Of a stretch of 64,000 nt of DNA, positions 49,620-64,000 are shown one piece after another. Position 1 is the first letter of the stretch. The number at the start of each line of letters is the position of its first letter. This DNA is from an uncultured Acidobacteriota bacterium. GTDB taxonomy: Bacteria; Acidobacteriota; Vicinamibacteria; Vicinamibacterales; CAVVIG01. The translations under genes were made by a program, and so were the position numbers. The stretch lies in the NCBI GenBank assembly GCA_963789075.1, contig CAWBJQ010000003.1, forward strand, positions 102,004-166,003, given 5' to 3'. Under the pieces are notes generated by a model. That model ran no database searches. It saw only the letters and a program-made list of their open reading frames with translations, and had not been told where the DNA came from.

Positions 49620-50254
49620 TTATCGTTCGGCAGCCGCAAGGTCCCTGCGCAGTTCCTCGGCCGTGCGGCGCGGACCGTAGCCAGGCGTGTCGCGCTGAAT
49701 GCGCCACCCTTCGTTCAGCGGGCCGGCATCGACCGTATCGAACCCGAACTCGTCAAGTAGACGGCTCACGGTTGCCTTGGCGGACGGATCGTTGCCGGCG
49801 ATGACCAGCGCTCGACGGTTATTCGCGCCTGCGGGCAGGCCGTCCGTCGTCAGCTGCACGGCATAGATGTGATTGAACGCTTTGACGACGTGCGACCTCG
49901 GGAGATGAGCTGGAGCAGCTCGGAGGTCGTAGTCGACTCATTGTCCAGCTCAGCGATGTGACCGTCACGCTCGGGTAGTAGTTGTTGGTGTCGATCACGA
50001 TCTTGCCGGCGAGCGGCTCGACCGGGTCCTGTCCGATAGTGTTTCAGCGGAATCGTCACGACGACGATGTCTCCGGCCTTCGCGGCGTCGACGACGGTCG
50101 CTGCTCGGGCTTTCGGTCCGAGCTCGGCGACGAGCGTCGTCAAAGTTTCAGGCCCGCGCGAATTGCTGACGACGACGTCGTAGCCGTGCGCGACCGCCAG
50201 GCGCGCCAGCTGACTTCCGATATGCCCGGCGCCAATGAGTCCAATAGTAGCCAT
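49620..50254 (-). CDS. NADP oxidoreductase, F420-dependent reductase family (several frameshifts)
   Basis: IGLIGAGHIG, NSRGPETL, VIDTNNY, VVKAFNHI, IAGND..DAGPL. Confidence 0.85.
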
Positions 50255-50333: not shown

Positions 50334-51565
50334 TTGCACGCGGAGATCCGGATCACGGCGATGGTTGCCTGCGGCGTCTTCGCCGTCAGCGTCGCCGTGT
50401 GGCTGGCCAGACCGAGCGCACCGGACATTACGGTCGCTCGTGCGGAGTTCGGTGAGTTGAAGTCCTGGGTCACGACCAACGGCATCGTAGAGCCTGTCAC
50501 CTCTGACGTGGCCCGCGCGCGCATCACCACGCACGTCACCCGTGTGCTGGCGACCGAGGGTCAGATGGTCGAGCCCGGTGACCTCATACTCACGCTCGAC
50601 GTTGGTCCGCAGCAGGCCGAGCTGGCGCATCAGCGCGAGGCGCTGAAGCGTGCCGAGAACCAGCTGAAGGCTCTCGAGGCGATCGGCCAGTCCGGCGACC
50701 TCGCGCAGGTCGATGCGCAGCTGCGCAGCGCCGACGCTAATCTCGCCCACCTGACGCAGCAACGGGCGGGAACCGTCCGCCTCCTCGAGAAACAGGCGGC
50801 CACCCGCGAGGAGCTGGATCAGATCAATCTCGCGGTCGCCCGCGCCCAGGCGGCGCGCACGGTCCTGGCGCAGAAACAACAGAGCTTGCAGCGCAGCAGC
50901 GCGATGGACGTGAACGCCGCCACGCTGGCTGTTCAGCAGGCACGCGACGCACTGCAAGTCTCCGAAGCGCTCGTCAAGTCGGGAGAGATCCGCGCCTCGA
51001 TTCACGGGACCGTTTACGCACTGCCCGTGCGCCGCGGCGTGCAGGTCGACGAGGGTGCCGTGCTCGCCGAAGTTGCGGATTTGAAGGCCTTGCAGGTTCG
51101 CGCCTACGTCGACGAGTCCGAGCTCGCCGCGATTGAAGCGGATCATCAGGTCGAGATCTCGTGGAACGCCGTCCCCGGTCGCGTCTGGACCGGACGCACG
51201 ACCCGAATCCCGAAGACCGTGGCTCAACGCGGCGACCGCCGTGTCGGCGAGGTGATCTGCTCGATCGATCACAGCGCGCCTCCCTGATTCCCAACCTCGA
51301 CGTCGACGTCCGGGTCCTCGCGCGGTCCGAGCCGCACGCGCTGCTCGTGCCGCGCGCGGCGGTCCGCACGGATCGATCGCAGCGCTATCTGTTCGTGGTC
51401 AAGGATGGCGTCGCGCATCGGCGAGCCATCGACGTCGACGGATCCAGCTCCACCAGCTACGCAATCACGCGGGGGCTCACCGAGGGAGAGTCGGTCGTCG
51501 TGCAATCCAATACGGAACTTCAGGACGGCATGCGCGTGAACGCCGTGACGCCGCAGGCCGAGTGA
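50334..51565 (+). CDS. Efflux periplasmic adaptor (MacA/HlyD-like membrane fusion protein; frameshift ~51275, start uncertain)
   Basis: TM anchor, EGQMVEPGDLILTLD, coiled coil, IRASIHGTV, ALLVPRAAV, GLTEGESV. Confidence 0.88.
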
Positions 51566-52295
51566 AGATCGCCGTCTTCTTCGCACTCGATGCCGAGTGC
51601 GCACCGTGGCGAGCCGGCCATCGTTTCCAGCCATGGCGGACGCCGACGGATCGCTCTTCGAGACCACACTCGGGCAATCGCGTGTCCGTCTCGCGCTCAT
51701 CGGCGTTGGCGCTCGTCGTCTCGATTCGATCACGGCACGCGCGCTGAGTGGCGACATCGACGTGGTCATCGGCGCCGGAGTGTCGGGAGGATTGCAGGAT
51801 CGACAGAAGGTTGGAGACGTTCTCGTGGCCCAACAGGCTCTCTCCGAACGCGACGGGCGGACCGCTCGTGCCGATGATCGGTTGATCGCTGTCGCGGCGT
51901 CCTGCGGCGCGCGGATTGTCGAGACCTTTCTCACCACCGACCACATCGTCAGAGGTGTCGCGCGAAAGCGTGAGCTCGGCGCGCGGGCCGAGGCGGTGGA
52001 TATGGAAGGCTTCGCGATTCTGCGCCATGGCGGCCGAGCGAGGCATCCCGGGTCTCGCGGTCCGGGTCGTCGGTGATGAAGTCGATGTGGCGTTGCCGCT
52101 CGATTTCGAGTCTGCGATCCGGCCCGACGGCACGATCCGCGCGATGAAACTGTTCACACAGGCGGTCGCGCACCCACGAGACTGGCCCGCCCTGGTCGCG
52201 TTTGGCCAGGTCGCAGCGGCGCGCGCTCGACGGGCTCGCGCGTTTCCTGGATCGACTTTGTGGCGGATCTTACGAACCGCTCTGGCCTTCCGTAA
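51562..52295 (+). CDS. hpnG: PNP/MTA-SAH nucleosidase family, HpnG-like adenosylhopane nucleosidase (about 3 frameshifts)
   Basis: FALDAE, GAGVSGGL..VGDV, AVDMEG, VRVVGD..LPLDF..IRPDGTI; sits in a hopanoid cluster; 3' end approximate. Confidence 0.65.
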
Positions 52296-53010
52296 CGAGG
52301 TCCTGGCGCCGCACTGCGTGTCGTCGATCGCCACGGCGCGGAGACCCGCATCGCGCCACCGAGGGAGCCATTCGCCCACCGCTTTCAGCGTCTCCTCACG
52401 ATCCGCGCCGAGCGCCTGATGAGAGCCGTCGTGCAGAACGAGGATGTCGCGCTCCGACACGCGCGCGAGCTGTTGCCCCAACCGAGCGGCGGGACGGCCA
52501 TCCCAATCGTGCCCAATCACCGTCCACATCACGACGTGATGGAGGCCACTCGCCTTCACCGCCGCCGTCAGCTGCGGGCCCCGAAATCCCCAGGGCGGCC
52601 GGAAGAGCGTCGGTCGTATCCCCGCGGCGTCTTCAATCGACTCCTGGCAGCGCCGCAGTTCGTCGCAGATCTGCTGTCTCGACCGCCATACCGAGATTCG
52701 GATGCGTGTCGGTGTGATTGCCGAGGACATGACCTCGGGCGGCGATCTCGCGGACGATATCCGGGCACGCACGCGTCCACCGTCCGATGACGAAGAAGGT
52801 CGCACGCGCCTCGTGCCGATCGAGGAGGTCGAGCAGTCGCGGTGTGACGGCAGGATTGGGACCATCGTCGAAGGTCAACGCGACCAATCGCGCGGAGCTC
52901 GTGCGACGAATCGTCGGGCCAAATAGTTGGGACGCTGGATGAAAGGCCCCCCACGCCGCGAGTCCCGCCGGCACGGCGGCGGCCCCGAGGACGAACGGCC
53001 AGGTTGCCAT
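52270..53010 (-). CDS. NodB-type (CE4) polysaccharide deacetylase (frameshift ~52695; 3' end approximate)
   Basis: VALTFDDGP, ATFFVIG, GNHTDTH, LFRPPWG, ILVLHDG. Confidence 0.88.
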
Positions 53011-53018
53011 ACGACGGC

Positions 53019-54335
53019 TCACGGCACGAGCTGATTCAGTTCGCCGGTTTCCGTGCGGAGTTGGAGATCGGCTTGTTGGCGCTCGTACTCGGCCATGAAG
53101 AGCGCCGTCCACGCTGCCGCCTCGTCGAGTTGCGCCTTTGCGAGATCGGCCTGAGCCGCGCGTCCCTCGGCGGCGCGCTCTCGGAGCACGCGGATGCTCT
53201 CTTCGGCGAGCTGCACTTCCAGATCCGCAACATCGCGCTTCGCGACGGACCCACGGAGCTGCTGGGCGGCTCGACGGACGTTCAACGCCAGCTCCGCGCG
53301 CCTGGCGCGAAGGGTCGCCTCCGCCTCGATGAGCTCGCTTTGCGCGAGGGCAATCGACGCACCAGTGGCGGGGTTGAGGATCGGCACGGACGCCTGAACG
53401 CCGACGTTGACGTTATTCCGTTGAAAGGCCAGAAAGTACGTATCGTAGTTATTGTATCGACCGAGCACCGAGTAAGTGCCAACCAGATCGAGCGATGGCC
53501 AGTAGCCTTTCCGCTGCGCGGCCAGATGCTCCTCGCTCGCGCGTCGCTCAGCCTCGACGACCCGCAGTTCCGGACTGTTCGCTTCAGCAGCGGCGACCAG
53601 CGTGTCCATCGTCCGATCGGGCGACCGAGGCAGCCCCTCGAGGGCGATCTGCAACGGCTGTCCCGGGTCGACACCGGTCGCGTCGCGGAGCTGCTGCTCG
53701 ATCACGGACGCGCGGCCTTCCAGGTCGATGATCTGCTGCCGCGCGCGGGCCGCCGAGAGACGCGCGCGCAGCACATCGCTGCGCAGGGCACGCCCTTCGG
53801 CCAGTTGGTTGAGCGTCACGTCGACCAACTCATCGACGCCCGTCACCGCGCTCGCCTGGCGCTCGAGCGATCGGCGAATGGCGACGAGCTCGAGGTACAT
53901 CGACGCCGTTTGCAGGATCACCGCCGCTCGCACCTGCGCCACGGACAGGCGCTGCGCTTCCGCATGTCCATCGGCGGACTGGACGTCGGCACGGGCCGAA
54001 GCGTTGAACAGTGTTTGCGAGTAGGCGAGATGGAAGAGGGACGGAATATTGCCGCCAGGCGCAAGCGGAAACCCACTCGTGTATTGCGCACCGGTACCTG
54101 TAAACAAACTTGGCTGAAAACGCGCATGCGCTTTTTCGGCCTGCGAGGTGGCGGATCGCTGCTTCGCCAGCGCTTCCGCGATCTGCGGGCTGCGCTGCAC
54201 GGCCAAGGCGAGCGTCTCCTTGAGGGTGAGCGGCGATTGCGGCGACTGGGCCATGACTCTGGCGCCGTCGAAGGACAACGCCGCCACGAGTACCGTCCAT
54301 CGGGTCCATCGGATCAAAGTCGTCCGTTTATTCAT
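53019..54335 (-). CDS. TolC-family outer-membrane efflux protein
   Basis: Signal peptide, LTLKETLALAVQRSP, two OEP repeats, YWPSLDLVG. Confidence 0.9.
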   Translation of the reverse strand: MNKRTTLIRWTRWTVLVAALSFDGARVMAQSPQSPLTLKETLALAVQRSPQIAEALAKQRSATSQAEKAHARFQPSLFTGTGAQYTSGFPLAPGGNIPSLFHLAYSQTLFNASARADVQSADGHAEAQRLSVAQVRAAVILQTASMYLELVAIRRSLERQASAVTGVDELVDVTLNQLAEGRALRSDVLRARLSAARARQQIIDLEGRASVIEQQLRDATGVDPGQPLQIALEGLPRSPDRTMDTLVAAAEANSPELRVVEAERRASEEHLAAQRKGYWPSLDLVGTYSVLGRYNNYDTYFLAFQRNNVNVGVQASVPILNPATGASIALAQSELIEAEATLRARRAELALNVRRAAQQLRGSVAKRDVADLEVQLAEESIRVLRERAAEGRAAQADLAKAQLDEAAAWTALFMAEYERQQADLQLRTETGELNQLVP

Positions 54336-55533
54336 AGCGCAGTGCATCCACGGCTTCGAGGTTCGCGGCCCGATTGGCTGGCAGATAGCCGAAAAACAGG
54401 CCGGCTCCCGCCGACACCGCGAACGCCACGACGATTGAGAGTCCCGACACCTGAACCATCACACCTGACGGCAGAAACAGACGGGCAAGGGCGAGCACGA
54501 TCAGAGCGACGGCAATCCCGCCGACCGCGCCACCGCCGCCAATCACCGCCGCCTCGCTCAGAAACTGCAAACGCACGTCCTTCCCGAGTCGCGCCAACCG
54601 GCTTTGCGCAGTCCGATTTCACGCGTTCTCTCAGCGACCGTCACGAGCATCACGTTCATGATGCCGATCCCGCTGATCAGAATCGCAATGACCGCGACAA
54701 CCAGCAGCGTCATGGTGAGCGCCCTGGAGATGCGGTGCGCGGCGGCCAGGAGTCCGGTCAAGTTTTCGACCACGTATTGCGCGCCCGTCCGATGCCTGAC
54801 GTCCAACAGCCGGCGCACCTCGTCGGTCACCTCTGGTTACTGCAGCGGGGCTGGTCGCTTGGGCGTAGAGCACGCGGAGAAAATCCTGTCCGGTCGCCGC
54901 CGACAAGGCGCGATGAGGAATGAGCGCCGACTCACGCTGAATCTCCGACGCACCAAACGTCGAGACGCGCTCGCTGAACGTGCCGATCACCGTCAGAGGC
55001 AGCGTATTGATCCGAGCGATCGAGCCGATCGGATCTTCGTCGGGGAACATGCGAGCCGCGAGGCTCTCGGTCAACAGGCACACTTTCGATCCCAACGCGA
55101 GCTCGTCATCGTCGAAATAGCGTCCTTTGACGATCGAGAGATTGCGAATGTGTTGAAATCCGGCGGTCACACCGATCAGCCGGATCCCACGCTCTTGTCC
55201 ACTCGCCACGACGGTTGCGGGCTCGTCCCGGGTGCCCGCCACGTCGACGACGTCGGGAATTTCCGTCCGGATGGCCTCCAGGTCGCCGATCCTCAGTTCG
55301 TCTGCCCGCATCGCCGGGCGATCGCTGTCCGCGTGCACGCGCGTTGCGTACACAAGGTTCGCCCCGACGCCTTCGATCTGCTCGACGACGTACTGCTGCG
55401 CCGTGGCAGCGACGCTGACCACCAGCACGATCGAGGCGCTGCCGAGCACGACGCCGAGCGTGCTGAGAACCGCCCTCGTTCGGTATTCGTGGAGGGCGCC
55501 GAACGCGATGCTCCAGGTCTCAGTCGTTCGCAT
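54328..55533 (-). CDS. MacB/FtsX-like ABC permease without fused ATPase (frameshifts ~54835 and ~54600)
   Basis: [66 protein letters not shown]. Confidence 0.9.
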
Positions 55534-56736
55534 CAGGCCGACTCAGTAGAGATCGCGCTCGGTCCGCACCCGTCGTGAACCGCGACGATGGGCACCAACT
55601 GGCCGCGCACAAGGTGGAACTCGCGTCCGCGCCACTCGATCCGGTCGATAGACATGCGCGGCGCACGCCACGAGAAAACTGATCGCGTCGCGGACCGGCA
55701 GCAGCCACCACCGTCGTCGTACGGTGTCGTCGCGCAGAACGCCGGCGCCGACCACCCAGGCCATGGCCGTCCGCAGCACCATATAGGCAGCAATGTAAAC
55801 GCATGCGATGACGGCCGACGAAGACACGGCGACCGCAGCGATGGTCCAGGGCAGTCCGTGCGTGACAAGGGTCCGTACGAGATAGCTCCAGGGCCGGCAT
55901 TGCCGCTGCGTGATCGCCCAGCGTAGCTCGTGCCGGAAGAACGGAGCAAACGTCGCCGCGACGCACACGGTTCGAACGACGCAATCGGCCAACGCGACGC
56001 GGTAGCCTTGCGCGGCCACGCGAGAGCCGAGCTCGAAATCGTCGGCGCACCGGTCGACCATCGCCTCGAATCCGCCAATCTCGGACAGATGGGCGCGGGT
56101 CGTCGCCATGGTCGCGCCGAGCGCAAACCGCACGCCTTCCACTCGTTCGGCTACCAGCACACCCGCCATGAAGTCGGCGGAGATCCCGAGCGCTTCCAGA
56201 TCCGCCCACACGTGCCGGCCGTCGGGGACGCCGCGATACAGACAGGTCACGACGCCGACGCTCGCGTCGTTGAACGCCGCTGCGACCGCTCGGAGATATC
56301 CGGTGGGGACGCTCACGTCGCTGTCGCAGATCACGAACAGGTCATGACGCGCTTCCCGCACGAGGCGACAGAGGGTGCTCACCTTGCTGTTGGGGCCAAC
56401 GTCAGGGATGCCGCTCACGAGCCGGATCGAGCGATCTGGAAACTCGGCGATCAATCGCTGCACGATCGCAATCGCCGCATCATCAGGATCCGCAACGCCG
56501 AAGATGATCTCGTAATCGGCATAGTCCTGCCGGCAGAACGTGGCGTAATGCCCGTAAGCGCCCGGATCGATGCCGCGCACGGGCTTCAGCACGCTCACCG
56601 CGGGCGCAGATGCCGGGTTGAAACGCGGAATCCGCCGATTGAGGAAGCGGACCGCCGTGGCGATCGCGATCGCGTAGTACACGAGCGGCAGGCACGCGGC
56701 GCCAAGAATGCTCCGCGCGAGCCAGATGGGTATCAT
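55533..56736 (-). CDS. hpnI: Bacteriohopanetetrol glucosamine glycosyltransferase HpnI (GT21-like; frameshift ~55660)
   Basis: SVLKPVRG, QDY..YEIIFGV, GPNSKV, CDSDV, FALGATMA, ADDFELG, HELRW, IEWRG. Confidence 0.88.
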
Positions 56737-56745
56737 CGCGAGGCC

Positions 56746-57114
56746 TCAGCCGGCGAGGACGAGCAGCACGCCGGAGCAGATGAGCACAATACCGGCCCAC
56801 CGGCCGGCGCTCAGACGCTCGGACAGGAAATACCGCGCGCCGATGGCCCCGATGACGTAACTCAACGCCGTGGCCGGTACCGCGACGCTCACATCTTCCC
56901 AGGAGAGCAGCGCGAGCAACGAGAAGAAGGCCACTGCCTGCAGCCCCAGGCTCACCCACATCGATCGAAGACGGAATGCCCGGGTCAGCGAGGACATGAT
57001 GGCAGACGGTGTGAAATCCACCACTTCGCCGGTCTGCTTCATGGCATACGCCGCGGCAAGATCACCGCCTGTCCCCGTCGCCAGGAGAACCGATAGACAC
57101 CACAAGGTGCGCAT
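56746..57114 (-). CDS. Small EamA/SMR-like (ArnE/ArnF-like) membrane protein
   Basis: 4 TM; LLSWEDVSVAVPATALSY, LSERLSAGRWAGIVLI. Confidence 0.85.
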   Translation of the reverse strand: MRTLWCLSVLLATGTGGDLAAAYAMKQTGEVVDFTPSAIMSSLTRAFRLRSMWVSLGLQAVAFFSLLALLSWEDVSVAVPATALSYVIGAIGARYFLSERLSAGRWAGIVLICSGVLLVLAG

Positions 57115-57117
57115 GGC

Positions 57118-57519
57118 TCAGCCCCGATCCGTCGCGCGTTGCGTGCTGATCGGTGTGCGTCCCACGAGCGCAACCCCGATCGCGACGAGCAGCACGCCAA
57201 CCCATCGAATGGCCCCGACCGTCTCTCCGCCGAACACGTGGCCGAGCAGTGGGACGACGATGTAGCCGCTCGCGGAAGCGGGCAGCACATAGCTGTAGTC
57301 GGCCCAGGAGAGCAGCAGAAGGTGCAGGATGTAAAACAGTATCAGGCTCGCGATGCCGGCGAGGATCGCGCCGGTCGTGAACGCCCCCGCGAGTACGTTC
57401 AGCAGCGGCCCGATCGACCAGGTGCGAACTTCGCCCACCTGCTTCATCCCGGCGCTGAGCAGGAAGTTTCCCATCGAATTGAACAGGACCGTCAGCGCCA
57501 GCAGTGTGTAGGTCCGCAT
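57118..57519 (-). CDS. Small EamA/SMR-like (ArnE/ArnF-like) membrane protein
   Basis: 4 TM; LLSWADYSYVLPASASGY, GETVGAIRWVGVLL. Confidence 0.85.
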   Translation of the reverse strand: MRTYTLLALTVLFNSMGNFLLSAGMKQVGEVRTWSIGPLLNVLAGAFTTGAILAGIASLILFYILHLLLLSWADYSYVLPASASGYIVVPLLGHVFGGETVGAIRWVGVLLVAIGVALVGRTPISTQRATDRG

Positions 57520-57556
57520 CGAGCGGACGGTCGCAGACGGCGCGTCGTCCCACGGT

Positions 57557-59036
57557 TCAACGGGGATCATCGGCTCCGGCGACGGCTAGGGGCTGGCCGC
57601 GCCCAACGCGCGCCCGCGCCATCCGCCGGCGTTCATGGAGATAGTCGAAGAACTCGCCGCCCTCCCGCAGACGGCGGACCAGCATCTGCCGGTCTGTCGC
57701 CATTTCGCGCAGGAAGCGCAGAATCGGCTTGAACCGGAAATAGAAGCGCCGATACATCCGCTCGACCGCATCTTCAATTTCGTCGGCGGTCAGGTGCGCG
57801 TACCGCAAGGTCGAGACCTGTATGCCGGTCTTCGAGACGAGGGCCTGTTCATCCAGCCATCCGTTCGCGCGCGCGTCCTGATACAGCTCGGTGCCTGGAT
57901 ACGGTGCCGCGATCGACACCTGAATCGAGAACGGATCGATCTCCTCGGCGAAGCGGATGGTCTCCTCGATGGTCTCGTGCGTCTCGATCGGCAGGCCGAT
58001 CATGAACGTCCCGTGGACGCGGATGCCAAGGCTGGCAGTTCCTCATGAAGGTGCGCGCGGTCTCGAGGCTGAGGCCTTTCTTCGCGCGGTCCAGAATCTG
58101 CTGATTGCCCGATTCGAACCCGACGAGCAGCAGGCGCAGACCGTCGTCGCGCAGCTCGCGCAGCGTTTCGTAGTCGAGATGCGCGCGCGCGTTGCAGGAC
58201 CAGGTCAGCTTCAGCTTCTTGAGGCCCCTGGCGATCTCGACGGCGCGCTCGCGATCGATCGTGAACGTGTCGTCGTCGAACATCCACTCGCGGACGCGGT
58301 CGCCGAACAGCTCCTTGCCGATCTCCATTTCGCGTACGACGGCAGCCGGCGATTTGGTGCGATACGCGTGGCCGCCGATCGTTTGCGGCCACAGACAGAA
58401 CGTGCACTTCGCCGGGCACCCGCGCCCTGTGTAGAACGAAACGTACGGATGGAGCAGATAGCCGATGAAGTAGCGTTCGATCTGCAGATCGCGATGATAG
58501 ACGGGCAGCACGCTCGGCATGGCGTCCCAGTCGTGAATGAGCGCCCGCTCGGGGTTGTGTCTGATCCGGCCCTCGCGATCGCGCCAGCTCAGGCCCGTGA
58601 TCGTGGGCCACGCGTTCCCTTGCGCCAGCTCGAGGCACGTGTAGTCGAACTCGTTGCGGCACACGAAATCGATCACGTCGGACTGGCGCAGTGTCTCCTC
58701 GGGCAGAACGGCGACGTGAGCGCCGATGAAGCCGATCGACGCATGCGGGTTCTTCGCCTTGATCGCCTCAGCGCACCGGATGTCGTTCGGCAGCGACGGC
58801 GTGCTGGTGTGAAGGATGAACAGCTCGTAGTCGTTCGCGATCGCCAGCACGTCCTCGATCGTCTGGTGATGGGGAGGCGCGTCCATGAGCCGGCTGCCCG
58901 GCACGAGGGCCGCAGGCTGCGCGAGCCAGGTCGGAAACCAGTAGGACGTGATCTCGCGCTTCGCCTGATATCGCGCACCCGCTCCTCCGTCGAAACCGTC
59001 GAACGAGGGCGGACTGAGAAAGAGCGTTTTCAGCAT
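57557..59036 (-). CDS. hpnJ: Hopanoid-associated radical SAM protein HpnJ (frameshift ~58035)
   Basis: KTLFLSPPSFDGFDGGAGARYQAKREI..WFPTWLAQPAA, GRGCPAKCTFCLWPQT (CxxxCxxC). Confidence 0.93.
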
Positions 59037-59045
59037 GGATCATTC

Positions 59046-60111
59046 CTACCGGAGACGAGTGAGGGTCATTTCGATCGACCGCTGACGTCCGTCGGCCCGG
59101 GCCCACTGGACGAGGATCGGACATTGATACGGACCCTCCGCGATCGTCCCCTTGCCCGTCAACTCGCGGTCGGTGACCAGCAGGCTCACCGACCGCTTCA
59201 TTCGAAGGAACCGGCGCGCCGGAACCGCGACGAGGCGCGCGAACAGGTTCTCCATCATCGATTCGCTCATCCGGAACGCCTCGAACACCTTGTTGCAGAC
59301 CTGGACGAAATCGTACGTCGCGTAATCGATCGTCCGGTTCGGGATGCCCCATGGATCGGTCAGCAGATATCCGTCCCTTCTCCGCCACGAATCGCAGCGG
59401 GTTCCCGAGCACTTCCCGGAGATCGTGCCGCATCAGCAATGTCTCGTACTCGTTGACGGTCAGCCCCGCGTGCCGCTCGCTCGCCGCCAGCGCCAGGTGC
59501 ACGCGCCCATTCTGGACGCCATGCCGTCCAATCAGCTCCTGCATCTGTTCGTACAAGCCGATGCGCGAGTCCTTCAGGTTCAATGAGTCGATCGGATGTG
59601 ACGACATGGGAATCACGAACGGCTCGCGCGCCACCACTTCCTCGTGGTGGAACCCGATGACGCTGGTCAACCGGCGGCGCGGCTGGTCGTTGCACACCCC
59701 GTCGAGATCAACGAAGTACACCGGCTCGTTCGGACGGTTCACGTAGTTGACGCAATTACTGAGGCCGGCCGCGATGAACGCCAGATGCGCGTCCGCGTTC
59801 TTCGGCTCGACGGTGCGCTGAACGTCGGTCAGCTCCTCGCGTCGATTCAGATCGTCGTGCCGATAGCCGGCGCCCTCGGGAAACATCCGCCGGAACACGT
59901 GAATATACGGGCCGATGCCCAGCTGCGCCTGACTGAGACGGGAGGCGAGGCCCTGATCGAGATATCCAGCCGTCGTGTGGAACGAGGAGTAGAGCGCACG
60001 TGGGAACTCCTCCAGCCCAGCGCCTTTGGCGACGGCCTCCTTGCGCACGTCGATGAGATCGAAGCGGGCGCCAGGTGTGACTTCCAACATCAGTTCGACG
60101 GGATCATGCAT
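59046..60111 (-). CDS. Tandem YjbQ/UPF0047-like domain protein (frameshift ~59365)
   Basis: Domain 1: HTTAG, YRHD, NADAHL, YFVDLDG..PRRR. Domain 2: HAGLTVNE..RHDL, SVSLLV, GPYQ. Confidence 0.65.
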
Positions 60112-60120
60112 GGCGCGACC

Positions 60121-61137
60121 TCAGGCGACGGAGCGGCCGCGACCCGTCGCCCGCTTGACGTATCCCCGTTCCATGTACCATCCAACCGCGCGATCGAGCG
60201 CCGCCTCAATCGCGCCCGACTCGAATCCGAGCTCGCGCCGCGCTTTCGACACGTCGACGAACATCACGTGACGCGCCATCCGAACCGCTTCGAGCGGCAC
60301 GACCGGTTCGGTTCCCCGCGCGCGCGCGACGAGCTGGCTGCCGCAGCCGACGGCCAGGGCCAGCGCGTGCGGAATGCGCAGGGACGGGGCGCGACGCCCG
60401 GTGAGACGGGCGAGCACGGCCCACAACTCCTTCAGAGCCACGTTCGGTCCGCCCAGAAGATATCGTTCTCCCACGCGGCCCCGCTCCGCGGCGATGAGAT
60501 GACCCGCCGCGACATCCTCGACCGGCACGAGATTGAGCCCGGTCTCCACGTACGCGAGCATACGCCCGCGGAGGAAATCGAGGATCATCCGGCCCGTCGG
60601 CGTCGGCTTCCAATCGCCAGGCCCGATAGGCGTCGTGGGATTGACGATGACCGCCGGCAGTCCTGACGCGGCGGCCGCACGTACCTCCTGTTCGGCCAGA
60701 AACTTCGAGCGCTTGTAGGCGCCGGTCATCTCGTCGAGGCGAGCCTCCGTCTCCTCGGTCGGCAGCGCGCCAGAGCGAGGCACTGCGATCGTCCCCACCG
60801 TGCTCGTGTAGATGAACCGCTCGAGGTCCGCTCGACGACACGCGTCGATCAGATTCCGCGTTCCGACGACGTTGCTCTCGTACAGCGCGGTGGGGTCCGA
60901 GGATCCCAGTCGATAGTCGGCGGCGACATGAAACACGCGCTGGACGCCTCGCACCGCCGAATTCAGCGATTCGCGATCGCGCAAATCGCCGAACACGATT
61001 TCGACGGGGAGTCCCTCCAGCGCGTGGAGGTGACTCGCCCGCCTCGCCAGCACGCGAACGTGATCGCCCCGATCGACGAGCTGGCGCGTCACATGGCTTC
61101 CGACGAACCCAGTGGCGCCGGTCACCAACGTGGTCAT
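60121..61137 (-). CDS. hpnA: Hopanoid-associated NAD-dependent epimerase/dehydratase HpnA
   Basis: LVTGATGFVG, FHVAADYRL, YKRSK, VNPTTPIGPGDWKPTPTG. Confidence 0.92.
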   Translation of the reverse strand: MTTLVTGATGFVGSHVTRQLVDRGDHVRVLARRASHLHALEGLPVEIVFGDLRDRESLNSAVRGVQRVFHVAADYRLGSSDPTALYESNVVGTRNLIDACRRADLERFIYTSTVGTIAVPRSGALPTEETEARLDEMTGAYKRSKFLAEQEVRAAAASGLPAVIVNPTTPIGPGDWKPTPTGRMILDFLRGRMLAYVETGLNLVPVEDVAAGHLIAAERGRVGERYLLGGPNVALKELWAVLARLTGRRAPSLRIPHALALAVGCGSQLVARARGTEPVVPLEAVRMARHVMFVDVSKARRELGFESGAIEAALDRAVGWYMERGYVKRATGRGRSVA

Positions 61138-62192
61138 GGCACGGGGCTCGAGTCGTGGAGCGGCGGCAAGGGCACTTCTGCCGAACCTCCTCCCAGCTGC
61201 CATCGGAGCAGTTTCCAGCTATCGGTCAGCCGACGATTGCCGCCGAGGACCGCGGACGGCTCGTAACCCACGTGAACCATGCAGTCTTCGCACCGCGGGT
61301 CGCGCCCGCGACCGTACGTCTCCCACGGTGTGCTGTCGAGGAACTCTTTGAACGTCGCGTGATGCGCATCGGTAATCAGATAGCAGGGCGCTTTCCATCC
61401 GCGCGTGTTGTAGGTGGGATTCGCCCAGGCCGTGCACATCATCTCTTCGCGCTCGCCCCGCAGATATTCCATGTAGATCGGGGAGGTCATCAGGTTGAAT
61501 CCGTCGAGCAGCCGCTGGGCCGCCTGGAACTTCTGATGAATCTCGGCGCGGTTCATGAACAGCTCTTTCGACTCGACCGCGGCATACGAGTACGCCGGCG
61601 ACAGCATGAATCCGTCGACACCCAGGCCGGTGAGAAATCCGAAGAGGTCGGCGATCTCTGCCATGTCCGTCTGCTTGTAAATCGTCGTATTCGAGCAGAC
61701 GAGGAACCCGGCCGCCTTGGCCGCCTTGATGCCTTCGATGGCTTCCCGGAACACGCCGGCGCGCTCGACGATGATGTCGTGCGTCGCTTCGAGGCCGTCG
61801 AGGTGCACATTGAAAAAGAAGCGCGACGAGGGACGGAACTCTTTCAGGCGGCGGCGGATGAACATGCCGTGGGTGCACAGATAGATGTGCCGCTTCCTCG
61901 CCAGAAGCTCGCTCACCAGTTTGCCGAGCTCGGGATAGATCGTCGGCTCGCCGCCGCAGATCGACACGATTGGCGCGCCGCACTCATCGGCCGCCGTCAG
62001 GCACTGCTCGACCGACAGCTTCTGGGTGATCGTCGGTTTGTACTCCCGGATGCGTCCGCAGCCGGTACACGTCAGGTTACACGCGTGCAGCGGTTCGAGC
62101 ATCATCACCAGCGGAAACTTCTCGACGCGCCGCAGTCGTTTGCCGGCGATGTAGCCAGTTACGCTGGCCGTCATGGTCAACGGAAATCTCAC
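61134..62192 (-). CDS. hpnH: Adenosylhopane synthase HpnH (radical SAM)
   Basis: FPLVMMLEPLHACNLTCTGCGRI, SICGGEP, HLDG, CTAWANPT, DPRCEDCMVHVGYE. Confidence 0.92.
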   Translation of the reverse strand: MRFPLTMTASVTGYIAGKRLRRVEKFPLVMMLEPLHACNLTCTGCGRIREYKPTITQKLSVEQCLTAADECGAPIVSICGGEPTIYPELGKLVSELLARKRHIYLCTHGMFIRRRLKEFRPSSRFFFNVHLDGLEATHDIIVERAGVFREAIEGIKAAKAAGFLVCSNTTIYKQTDMAEIADLFGFLTGLGVDGFMLSPAYSYAAVESKELFMNRAEIHQKFQAAQRLLDGFNLMTSPIYMEYLRGEREEMMCTAWANPTYNTRGWKAPCYLITDAHHATFKEFLDSTPWETYGRGRDPRCEDCMVHVGYEPSAVLGGNRRLTDSWKLLRWQLGGGSAEVPLPPLHDSSPVP

Positions 62193-62252
62193 TCTTGCCC
62201 CCTGTTGCACGGCTGGCACCCACGGCGCGCCTGGCGTGCAACCACCATCGGA

Positions 62253-64000
62253 TCAGTCATGGCCAACACCACCGTACGCGCAGCCTTGGCCAACACGATC
62301 AGCTTCAGCCAACGCTACATCAGATTTGCTTCCCTGGCGGACATAGCGCCCGAGCGCTGCCAGCGGAAACGCATGCCGGTACAAGTGGTACTTCAAGTAG
62401 AACACTCGTGGAAACCCCGTCCCCGTCGTCGCCGTCTCATCCCACGATCCCGACGAGTTCTGCGAATCCAGCAGATACTCGAGGGCCAACTCGACGGCCG
62501 GGTCGTCTTCGGGCGCACGGTCGCCGAGCAACCCGATGAGAGCCCAGGCGGTCTGTGACGGCGTGCTCGGTCCCTGGCCCTTCTGCGCTGGATCGTCGTA
62601 CGACGCGCAGGTCTCGCCGAAGCCACCGTCGACGTTCTGCACGGACCGCAACCACGACGCGCCGCGCTGGACCCAGTGCATCGTCGCCATGTCGAGCACT
62701 TGGGCCGCTCGAAGCACAAAGCCCGTCCCGTAGAGATAGTTCACCCCCCATCGTCCGTACCAAGAGCCGTCGGCTTCCTGTTCGCGCTGGAGATACGCCA
62801 CTCCACGCGCGACCGCTGGATCGCTGCCACGGCCGAAGGTGGCGAGGCATTCGAGAACGCGGGCGGTGACGTCCACCGTCGACGGGTCGATCATGGCGTT
62901 GTGGTCCGCGAACGGCACGTGCGTCAGGATGGCCGTGTCGTTGTTCCGATCGAACGCCCCCCATCCGCCATCGTCGTTCTGCATGCTGACCATCCAGGTC
63001 AACCCGCGCTCGAGCGCGGCATGCGCGCGAATCGGGTCCGGGTGGTTGACGCTGAGGAGCGCCATCAGCACGAACGCCGTATCGTCTACGTCCGGATAGA
63101 AGTCGTTGCGAAATTCGAATGCCCAGCCGCCCGGCGCGGTGGCCGGATTGCGAATCTGCCAGTCGCCGGGAGCGATGATCTGGCGATCGAGCAGCCAGTC
63201 CGCCGCTTTCACCAGCGCGGGATGCTCCGCTGGCAGGCCCGCTTCGGTGAGGGCGGTGATCGCAATGGCCGTGTCCCACACGGGCGACACACATGGCTGC
63301 ACGCGAATCGTTTCGTGGTCTTCGATCTCCAGCTTCTGCAGCGCATCGATCTGGCTGGCAAGCGGCGGATCGTCGGGCGCGTAGCCGAGCGCGAGCAGCG
63401 CGAACGCCGCGTTCATGATCGCGGGATAGATAGCCCCGAGACCATCGCTTTGCTCCAGGTGGTGAAGCAACCAGCGACGCGCACCGTCCAATGCCACGCC
63501 GCGAAGCGGCTTCCACGGCAGCCGCTCATAGATTTTAGCGACGCCATCCAGCGCGAGAAAGACGTTTCGCCAACTGGCGAGCCGGGAATCCCAGGCAAAG
63601 CTCGCGTACCGGTCGGCCGGGTCCAGGAACAGCTCGTCCACGCGCGGTGCGACGCGCCAGCACGGCTTGACGGCGTAGAGGATCGTCAGCGGCACGACGA
63701 TGGCGCGCGTCCACGACGACATGCGGTAGATGCTCAGCGGCAGCCAGTCGGGAAGCGTCACCAGCTCGGGCGGAACCGCAGGCACCATGTCCCACTCGAG
63801 GGCACCGACCAGGACGAGATAGAAGCGAGTGAAGGAATTCGTGCGTTCGATGCCACCCAGCTCGTGAATGCGCCGGCGAGCCTTGGCCAGGCAGGGCGCA
63901 TCGATCGAATCTCCCGCGAGCTTGAGGGCCACGTACGCCTTGACGGTCGCATTCAGCTCCGAGGGTCCGCCCTCGTAAATGCTCCAACCGCCGTCGGCAA
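62253..64000 (-). CDS. shc: Squalene--hopene cyclase (5' end outside window)
   Basis: YPDVDDTA (DxDD), QW repeats (QNDDGGWGAFD, QEADGSWYGRWG), TGTGFPRVFYLKY. Confidence 0.98.
   Translation of the reverse strand, partial: ADGGWSIYEGGPSELNATVKAYVALKLAGDSIDAPCLAKARRRIHELGGIERTNSFTRFYLVLVGALEWDMVPAVPPELVTLPDWLPLSIYRMSSWTRAIVVPLTILYAVKPCWRVAPRVDELFLDPADRYASFAWDSRLASWRNVFLALDGVAKIYERLPWKPLRGVALDGARRWLLHHLEQSDGLGAIYPAIMNAAFALLALGYAPDDPPLASQIDALQKLEIEDHETIRVQPCVSPVWDTAIAITALTEAGLPAEHPALVKAADWLLDRQIIAPGDWQIRNPATAPGGWAFEFRNDFYPDVDDTAFVLMALLSVNHPDPIRAHAALERGLTWMVSMQNDDGGWGAFDRNNDTAILTHVPFADHNAMIDPSTVDVTARVLECLATFGRGSDPAVARGVAYLQREQEADGSWYGRWGVNYLYGTGFVLRAAQVLDMATMHWVQRGASWLRSVQNVDGGFGETCASYDDPAQKGQGPSTPSQTAWALIGLLGDRAPEDDPAVELALEYLLDSQNSSGSWDETATTGTGFPRVFYLKYHLYRHAFPLAALGRYVRQGSKSDVALAEADRVGQGCAYGGVGHD

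Follow-up and report, generated by a model that had tools for sequence, protein, structure and literature searches.

Gene content and organization of the locus

The DNA analysed here (the window) is a stretch of 64,000 nucleotides from an uncultured Acidobacteriota bacterium, corresponding to C3:102004-166003 of its genome assembly G000, which comprises 14 contigs and has a completeness score of 80.8%. We studied window positions 50334 to 64000, in which genes for hopanoid biosynthesis are interleaved with genes for a membrane-fusion protein (MFP), a MacB-type permease and a TolC-family channel. Based on a listing of open reading frames (ORFs) and on family scans, we located all of the genes named in the initial annotation of this DNA where it had placed them. 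Intact copies of these genes were available for comparison in the sister genome G001, which belongs to the same genus and is 100% complete.

The minus-strand run begins with squalene-hopene cyclase (SHC; 62253-64000; TIGR01507, 680.1 bits, cut-off 431.1), the 5' end of which lies about 196 nt beyond the window, the shc match in the genome extending to C3:166199. It continues with HpnH, an adenosyl-hopene transferase of the radical SAM type (61134-62219; TIGR03470, 419.5 bits, cut-off 225), and HpnA, a hopanoid-associated sugar epimerase/SDR protein (60121-61203; TIGR03466, 442.2 bits, cut-off 367.65). HpnJ, a B12-binding radical SAM enzyme (57557-59036), carries a 2-nt deletion near 58033, and its two fragments scored 564.1 bits (model positions 2-333) and 155.4 bits (345-471) on TIGR03471, the cut-off of which is 577.6; the orthologue in the sister genome is a single ORF of 493 aa, and that of another relative, G006, scored 726.5 bits on the same model. 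Downstream are two half-size EamA/DMT membrane proteins, EamA1 (150 aa; 57118-57570; PF00892, 20.5-21.1 bits, below the cut-off) and the ArnE-like EamA2 (122 aa; 56746-57114; PF00892, 31 bits), followed by the glycosyltransferase HpnI (GT2/GT21; 55520-56736, approximate), which scored 333.8 bits on TIGR03472 (cut-off 310) despite frameshifts near the 3' end of its gene, and 148.9 bits on PF13506.

The next gene encodes the MacB-type permease (54328-55533), a type VII ABC protein of the FtsX family without an ATPase domain, matching PF12704 (MacB_PCD) with 115.6 bits. The TolC-family outer-membrane factor (53019-54347) is intact at 442 aa, has an N-terminus resembling a signal peptide, and matched PF02321 (OEP) in two repeats with 143.8 bits and TIGR01844 with 133.6 bits, under the cut-off of 225. 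The last gene of the run encodes a NodB-family polysaccharide deacetylase (52270-53112, low coordinate approximate; frameshift near 52693) with a hydrophobic N-terminus; it matched PF01522 and the NodB, PgdA and PdaB models, and its ORF in the sister genome is intact (279 aa). In the intact sister locus the spacing between genes ranged from overlaps of 14-20 nt to gaps of 3-9 nt, in agreement with the tight packing noted initially.

Two genes lie on the plus strand and converge on this run. The MFP (50334-51565; frameshift near 51282), a periplasmic adaptor of the HlyD/RND_mfp type with a transmembrane (TM) anchor at its N-terminus, matched HlyD_D23, HlyD_3 and Biotin_lipoyl_2; on TIGR01730 its two fragments scored 65.5 and 62 bits and the intact 413-aa sister copy 126.6 bits. 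Its stop codon overlaps, as GTGA at 51562-51565, the GTG start of an HpnG-like nucleosidase/phosphorylase gene (51562-52295, end approximate), as had been reported. The latter contains several frameshifts; its fragments scored 46 and 42.9 bits on TIGR03468 and the intact sister copy 100 bits, below the cut-off of 187.1. It is the sole such gene in the genome, and its orthologues adjoin hpnA in G015, G006 and G093.

A protein of 354 aa resembling UPF0047/YjbQ is encoded on the minus strand between hpnA and hpnJ (59046-60111, approximate; frameshift near 59368). Its match to PF01894 was weak (20.1-21.3 bits, below the cut-off), no match to it was found in NCBIfam or the PDB, and tblastn found none in loci outside the genus, so that it is genus-restricted among the loci examined. 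Just upstream of the MFP gene, at 49850-50254, is an N-terminal fragment (134 aa) of an NADP-oxidoreductase (F420_oxidored), which is probably a further gene truncated by a frameshift.

Frameshifts in the assembled sequence

We found that insertions or deletions of 1-2 nt, not noticed in the initial annotation, break nearly every gene of the region. Specifically, the genes for HpnJ, HpnI, the deacetylase, the MFP, the HpnG-like enzyme and the YjbQ-like protein are each split between frames, and the MacB-type ORF, in which single nucleotides are inserted at about 54583, 54598 and 54837, leaves and then regains its reading frame. Alignment of the window with the sister genome revealed 17 such indels over 13.7 kb at 96.7% identity, and in the sister each gene is one open frame. 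In addition, all seven indels between 53000 and 60000 were contradicted, in the same direction, by related contigs from four other soil sequencing runs. Because the breaks are absent from both the sister genome and these contigs, they are, on the evidence of this comparison, assembly errors and not pseudogenes. Gene calls on the whole G000 assembly are probably fragmented likewise. DNA matching the region was present in 15 sequencing runs, in each as a small share, and these runs are labelled soil metagenomes.

Features of the permease and the EamA pair

The PF12704 domain covers residues 22-232 of the permease, and a C-terminal FtsX-type piece matches positions 566-646 of the MacB model. The intact 400-aa sister permease aligned over its whole length with residues 257-646 of Escherichia coli MacB (5nik), its transmembrane and periplasmic portion, with 183 bits. 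As in the MacB/FtsX family, the protein has four TM helices, the first two of which are separated by a large periplasmic core domain, and the partners of a tripartite system, an HlyD/RND_mfp adaptor and an OEP/TolC channel, are encoded in its cluster and conserved with it in relatives. It passed none of the equivalog models searched, scoring 206 bits on the MacB model (cut-off 966) and 25.2-39.3 bits on those of LolC/E (362); on the DevC model (TIGR01185, cut-off 290.35), the sister permease gave no match and the G093 protein 20.3 bits. In MacB, the major coupling helix that contacts the ATPase lies in the region of the TM2-TM3 loop, as described in passages of PMC8277102. A motif in this loop, ERTREIGxRxxVGA, is invariant in the three orthologues aligned, and its position agrees with this description, which suggests that an ATPase partner may have been retained.

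The EamA proteins are 122-165 residues long, share a LSWAD-S-V-PA motif and are encoded back to back, frequently with 4-nt overlaps. On the ArnE model NF011625 they scored 21.6-23.9 bits, under the cut-off of 92, and prediction of an EamA1-EamA2 complex from alignments A2 and A3 gave a score of 0.10 (mark, 0.32), which speaks neither for nor against binding. No other neighbour of hpnJ is as constant in Acidobacteriota as this pair, which occurs also in families without the pump genes. It is possibly a hopanoid-associated component that has so far gone unnamed, and a candidate flippase.

In four loci or genomes (G015, G006, G112 and L030), a gene for a PMT_2/ArnT-like glycosyltransferase of the GT-C type adjoins HpnI or the MacB of the same clade (L027 5852-7798; L029 21-1928; L110 10979-12739; L030 17522-18442). 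The PMT_2 protein scored 70.9 bits on the ArnT model (cut-off 567), and the neighbourhood may point to glycosyl transfer in the periplasm that is connected with the module.

Linkage of the pump genes to hopanoid genes in relatives

Whether the efflux genes are linked to hpn genes in relatives, on which the initial annotation had made its proposal depend, was tested by a synteny survey, and linkage was found in several lineages. A search of 41 genomes (40 relatives and G000) with a MacB fragment detected orthologues in G001 and G002 (97% identity), G015 (56%) and G006 (55%), all other matches being at most 31% identical. The gene order of the sister G001 is that of the window. In G015 and G006, which belong to other genera, the genes lie on one strand in the order MFP-TPR-MacB-TolC-HpnJ-EamA-EamA-HpnI-PMT_2, and the placement of shc-hpnH-hpnA-hpnG differs between the two. 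We considered whether the 1.1-kb gene between MFP and MacB in these genomes might be the missing ATPase, and ruled this out, since it encodes a tetratricopeptide repeat (TPR) protein; as this protein carries a signal peptide, it is not a cytoplasmic stand-in for an ATPase either. In G015 (L027 13631-15895) the MFP and the TPR protein form one ORF of 754 aa, which reflects either a fusion of the two or an error in the sequence where they meet.

A MacB-permease profile built from three intact orthologues (A1) was used to search a collection of species-representative genomes and returned 80 loci. The five with top identity (47-51%), from gp2 and other acidobacterial metagenome-assembled genomes (MAGs), had the order MFP-TPR-MacB-TolC-x-HpnJ-EamA-EamA-HpnI, where x was similar to pyridoxal phosphate-dependent decarboxylases in L031, the one locus scanned for it. 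In L034, TPR-MacB-TolC are close to the end of the contig. No hpn gene was found in the flanks of the other 73 of the 80 loci, except for an SDR match to HpnA in L072. The gp2 loci also have a divergent pair of ABC-2 ATPase and permease genes upstream of the MFP gene (L031 5026-6988 and 12664-14049), and similar ATPase matches were present in L030, L032, L033 and L038; this pair was judged to be a separate transporter.

Outside the phylum, locus L043, from a MAG labelled Deltaproteobacteria, contains HpnJ-TolC-MFP-ABC ATPase-MacB on one strand, which shows that a version of the module containing an ATPase exists. Head to head with this set is a gene (L043 2110-4938) resembling AsmA/YhdP, a family that has been linked to lipid transport between membranes.

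For a survey of the phylum, we used an even sample of 401 Acidobacteriota genomes, G000 included, and tabulated 48 loci, namely about 20 kb around HpnJ in 47 of 49 HpnJ-positive genomes (leaving out G063, which is unpublished, and G415) together with the window. Genes for MFP, TPR, TolC and MacB of the same clade were scored within 6 kb of HpnJ. At least two of these parts were present in 26 of the 48 loci and one part in seven; the EamA pair, or one half of it, was present in 39. ABC ATPases, a far commoner gene family that served as an internal control, were found within the same distance in only one locus. The pump-hpn linkage is thus not due to chance.

Three loci scored as having one part or none keep the module further off in the cluster. 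In G112, TolC is close by and TPR and MFP lie 6-8 kb from HpnJ; in G093, MFP-MacB-TolC are directly upstream of shc-hpnH-hpnA-hpnG-SQS-hpnI-hpnJ-hpnK-hpnL; and in G318 the trio precedes hpnI-hpnJ by about 13 kb. In G415, judged by coordinates, the MacB gene is 1.8 kb from HpnJ. The commonest arrangement, that of family f45, is MFP-TPR-TolC-HpnJ-EamA-EamA, in which TPR and TolC are too close together for a MacB gene to fit; genomes of this family hold one MacB of the same clade elsewhere. Relocated MacB genes of the clade have PMT_2 and HpnI-like genes as neighbours in G112 and a TPR gene in G311 and G301, and no neighbour was recognised by the queries used in G213, G232 and G223. Across these lineages, genes of the same families recur in linkage to hpnJ-EamA-EamA.

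The MacB clade and its distribution

A quick maximum-likelihood tree, with SH-aLRT support only, was calculated from 53 of the 96 MacB rows extracted, the 43 rows outside the tree being more distant, non-acidobacterial matches. All 14 of the hpn-linked MacBs fell inside one clade of 31 rows (SH-aLRT 99). Within it, a core clade of 11 rows (SH-aLRT 100) consists of linked genes only, from the window's lineage, G112, G053, G183/G271 and the gp2 MAGs; the other branches hold the relocated f45 genes, a Bryobacterales/Solibacter group, G093/G318 and L043/L051. Cyanobacterial permeases were among the nearest outgroups of the hopanoid-linked clade.

HpnJ above the cut-off was found in 49 of the 401 genomes and an A1 MacB match of at least 289 bits in 46, and of these 46, 40 (40/49 of the HpnJ-positive genomes) had HpnJ above the cut-off and two more (G000 and G242) had a split HpnJ; nine of the 49 had no MacB match of at least 289 bits. 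HpnN passed its model (TIGR03480, cut-off 751.85) in none of the 401 genomes. Proteins resembling HpnN, with scores of 321-433 bits, occurred in 23, none of them among the 49 HpnJ-positive genomes; the counts 49/401, 46, 40/49 and 23 rest partly on the unpublished genomes G063 and G188. In G063, HpnJ is above the cut-off and the MacB match (293.8 bits) is on a different contig. No HpnN above the cut-off was found in G001, G006, G015, G053, G093, three gp2 genomes or the L043 genome. The anti-correlation with hpnN proposed in the initial annotation carries little information inside the phylum, since HpnN passed its cut-off in none of the sampled genomes, with or without the pump.

The sequence beyond the window and the rest of the genome

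The initial annotation stated that the cluster continues past position 64000. This was correct for the 5' end of shc and for ispH (LYTB/IspH; L008 267-1385, minus strand), but no further cluster genes and no ATPase or hpnN gene followed; beyond ispH are unrelated genes for VWA, MgtC, aldolase and Ser/Thr kinase proteins. The statement that no ABC ATPase is encoded in the window was borne out, as none of the 77 ABC_tran (PF00005) matches of the genome falls within C3:102004-186003. Likewise, hpnN, looked for across the genome, was not found, the best TIGR03480 match being 29.9 bits.

The genome contains 108 MacB_PCD matches, many of them in duplicated permeases of the ADOP type, versus about nine MacB/LolD-type ATPases, so that a permease without an ATPase of its own is the rule in this organism, and most of its FtsX-type permeases must share or borrow one. 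The nine ATPases are more than 43% identical to each other. A search for orphan ATPases flagged two far from any permease, one of which proved to adjoin a MacB_PCD match, and no candidate could be named. No homologues of the TPR and PMT_2 proteins were found in the genome at an E value of 1e-10.

The deacetylase reported in the cluster is present, but it is of the NodB type (PF01522) and not a YdjC-type HpnK. HpnK has been reported missing in SD1 and SD3 acidobacteria in the portions of Damste et al. 2017 (PMC5462960) bearing on it. We found a partial HpnK-like gene of the YdjC type elsewhere in the genome (C4:11474-11986; 154.9 bits on TIGR03473, cut-off 232.6), and such genes were present in all five genomes checked, scoring 154.9-208.9 bits, all under the cut-off. 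The YdjC-type gene lies about 3 kb from the cluster in G015 and directly after hpnJ in G093. The possibility that the NodB deacetylase substitutes for HpnK is weakened by these YdjC-type genes in five of five genomes. NodB-type deacetylase genes were seen in the cluster of two genera, at the window position given above and at L029 10339-11064.

Proposed function and alternative explanations

On balance, the locus appears to be a hopanoid (bacteriohopanepolyol) supercluster into which a dedicated envelope-spanning exporter was recruited. We lean toward an exporter resembling DevBCA/HgdD, of which the predicted cargo would be bacteriohopanetetrol (BHT)-glucosamine or cyclitol-ether hopanoids; the EamA pair would serve it as a flippase, and its ATPase would be unlinked. 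As set out in the relevant parts of PMC5462960, genetic work has attributed the C35 side chain to HpnH together with HpnG; HpnI, HpnK and HpnJ are responsible for BHT-glucosamine and for the cyclitol ether. Judging from family assignments and published genetics, SHC, HpnH and the HpnG-like enzyme would build the C35 side chain, and HpnI, the deacetylase and HpnJ would convert BHT into BHT-glucosamine and the cyclitol ether at the cytoplasmic face. Since HpnJ is a radical SAM enzyme, which must work in the cytoplasm, its product would be made on the inner leaflet. The half-size EamA pair, acting as an ArnE/ArnF-like flippase, may then move the glycosylated hopanoid to the periplasmic leaflet, from which the MacB-type permease could extract it. 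The MFP and the TolC-family channel, joined in some lineages by the TPR protein, might subsequently carry the lipid on to the outer membrane or the cell surface, and the permease would be energised by a MacB/LolD-type ATPase encoded elsewhere.

The initial annotation had suggested an ABC/TolC pathway for hopanoid export. This idea is partly supported. It gains from the conserved linkage within the phylum and in one MAG outside it, from the single MacB clade and from the lack of HpnN in the genome, but its cargo is predicted from gene neighbourhood, and the direction of transport and the energy source of the exporter are predictions as well.

Several observations weigh against it. No cognate ATPase, fused or adjacent, was found for the permease in the window locus; tblastn found no ATPase match in the window, in L008 or in L025-L029, and none was present in the sister, G015 or G006 loci or in the 20 kb beyond the window. 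Of the loci compared, only L043, from outside the phylum, encodes an ATPase with the permease. The MFP-MacB slot in the acidobacterial loci is filled by the secreted TPR protein. In the 48-locus table, 15 loci had no pump part within 6 kb of HpnJ; in families f63, f54, f91 and f35, HpnJ is found, mostly with HpnK, the EamA pair and HpnI, and pump parts are not nearby. Of the 26 positive loci, 21 do not contain the MacB gene, making the permease the least constantly linked part. The counts themselves come from related, non-independent genomes among which family f45 predominates. In addition, eight f47 genomes without HpnJ had MacB matches just under the 289-bit line (278-286 bits) and stand outside the tree, and three HpnN copies are present in L051 (sister of L043), the flank of which lacks hpn genes.

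One alternative is an envelope or stress efflux pump that is co-regulated with hopanoid tailoring, has some other cargo (drugs, another lipid or a surface polymer), and works in a membrane conditioned by hopanoids. MacB-type pumps have varied substrates, according to passages of PMC8277102, such permeases are widespread in this genome, as its 108 MacB_PCD matches attest, and both the 15 HpnJ loci without a nearby pump and the frequent unlinking of the MacB gene are in its favour. We consider this explanation unlikely, though it deserves more weight than the others below, because the linked genes belong to one MacB clade, with 42 of 46 matches in HpnJ-bearing genomes, because the linkage is specific to hpnJ-EamA-EamA and survives rearrangement of all other neighbours, and because the trio in G093 immediately precedes shc and shares the strand of the hpn genes.

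An engine other than MacB is a further alternative, in which the EamA halves, as a proton-driven heterodimer of the DMT/SMR-like type, would power export with the MFP, TPR and TolC proteins, and MacB would be an optional accessory. This would explain both the missing ATPase and the f45 arrangement, MFP-TPR-TolC-HpnJ-EamA-EamA without MacB or ATPase, and would suit the proximity of the pair to HpnJ in 39 of 48 loci. It seems improbable, as the f45 genomes have retained a single MacB of this clade at another site, the conserved TM2-TM3 motif suggests docking of an ATPase, and L043 has a full ATPase-MacB set. Tripartite pumps driven by DMT or SMR proteins are not known to exist, although no search for one was made.

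Equally improbable is that part of the locus is an Arn-like pathway, in which a lipid-linked amino sugar is transferred to lipid A or a different acceptor in the outer membrane, and that the pump serves that product and not free hopanoids. The HpnI-type GT2, the NodB deacetylase, the EamA pair and PMT_2 parallel ArnC, ArnD, ArnE/F and ArnT, respectively, EamA matches ArnE weakly, the PMT_2/ArnT-like genes are found in G015, G006, G112 and L030, and a second HpnI-like GT2 gene is present in G015 and G112. Set against these parallels, HpnI passes its equivalog cut-off, the hopanoid-specific HpnJ is the anchor of the linkage, no PMT_2 homologue was detected in the genome of the window at an E value of 1e-10, and the deacetylase occurs in the cluster of two genera only. 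Finally, a chance location or recent insertion of the pump genes in this genus, with no functional tie, is suggested by the MFP being on the opposite strand there and by 108 MacB_PCD matches making a permease near any gene no rarity, but is very improbable given the orthologous linkage in other genera, other families and another phylum.

The reading that we favour, somewhat ahead of even chances, is that of a MacB-type tripartite exporter with predicted hopanoid cargo that is distinguished by a new clade, a new context, an unlinked ATPase and a TPR partner. More tentatively, and with a little less than even confidence, Acidobacteriota, for which the search gave no bona fide HpnN, could move amino-sugar hopanoids (BHT-glucosamine or the cyclitol ether) to the outer membrane or cell surface by a two-step route of their own, consisting of a flip by an ArnE/F-like EamA heterodimer followed by MacB-MFP-TPR-TolC with the ATPase supplied in trans. 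Such a route would be a new pathway of hopanoid trafficking, and its pump would be the first of the MacB type to be devoted to a triterpenoid.

Acidobacteriota are abundant soil hopanoid producers, and delivery of hopanoids to the outer membrane is known only in HpnN-bearing proteobacteria. The module tied to hpnJ offers a concrete, testable candidate route, made up of MFP, TPR, TolC-like, MacB-like and EamA-pair genes, and singles out the EamA pair as likely to be associated with hopanoids in general. If the reading is true, it would widen the cargo range of MacB-type pumps and would bear on the location in the envelope of cyclitol-ether hopanoids, which serve as environmental biomarkers.

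A full-text literature search found no paper tying MacB, TolC, an ABC pump or an EamA protein to hopanoids. Hopanoids and MacB are both present in PMC8277102 and PMC11713862 and, in the passages concerned, are treated separately; the corresponding passages of Damste et al. 2017 (PMC5462960) mention no transporter. A microsynteny study of hopanoid transport (bioRxiv 10.1101/2025.07.29.667474) included few acidobacterial sequences by its own account, and its main text contains no mention of MacB, TolC, ABC, efflux or EamA, although its supplementary tables S3 and S8, on further families conserved in the vicinity of shc, may include them.

Comparison with known systems

LolCDE uses an FtsX/MacB-type permease to take cargo with a lipid anchor out of the inner membrane's outer leaflet, and in this permease type the predicted exporter resembles it. 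The difference is that Lol uses no MFP or TolC; moreover, as the MacB clade is almost confined to HpnJ-bearing genomes, the module is, unlike LolCDE, not a housekeeping system.

Similarly to the Arn pathway, two adjacent half-size EamA proteins are encoded beside a GT2 and a NodB-family deacylase, and PMT_2/ArnT-like genes accompany them in relatives. However, the scores on the ArnE and ArnT models were far below the cut-offs, the glycosyltransferase passes as HpnI, and the carrier would be a hopanoid and not undecaprenyl phosphate.

The best solved relative of the pump is MacAB-TolC of E. coli (5nik). Both have a permease with four TM helices and a periplasmic core, together with MFP and outer-membrane-factor partners, whereas MacB has a fused N-terminal ATPase, which the window permease lacks, and the context here is lipid biosynthesis.

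HpnN, the characterised hopanoid exporter, belongs to the RND/HAE-3 family, as described in part of PMC8277102, and HpnM, HpnS and HpnT have been proposed as its partners in the main text of bioRxiv 10.1101/2025.07.29.667474. The predicted exporter shares with HpnN the proposed task of bringing inner-membrane hopanoids to the outer membrane, as well as the location in hpn clusters (PMC8277102 and bioRxiv 10.1101/2025.07.29.667474, in the sections on transport), but belongs to an unrelated protein family with another energy source.

A further parallel is DevBCA-HgdD, which passages of PMC8277102 describe as a MacB-like tripartite exporter of heterocyst glycolipids in Anabaena with a TolC homologue, and which performs for these lipids the extraction and export steps proposed here. 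The two differ in that the devA ATPase gene is in the dev operon and none is linked here, in that the acidobacterial modules include a TPR protein and the predicted cargo is a hopanoid glycoside, and in that the DevC equivalog model is not passed by the permease described here. Common to both are a separate MacB-type permease with a periplasmic domain, an MFP and a TolC-family channel, and the cargo of the Dev system, which is delivered beyond the inner membrane, is itself a membrane glycolipid.

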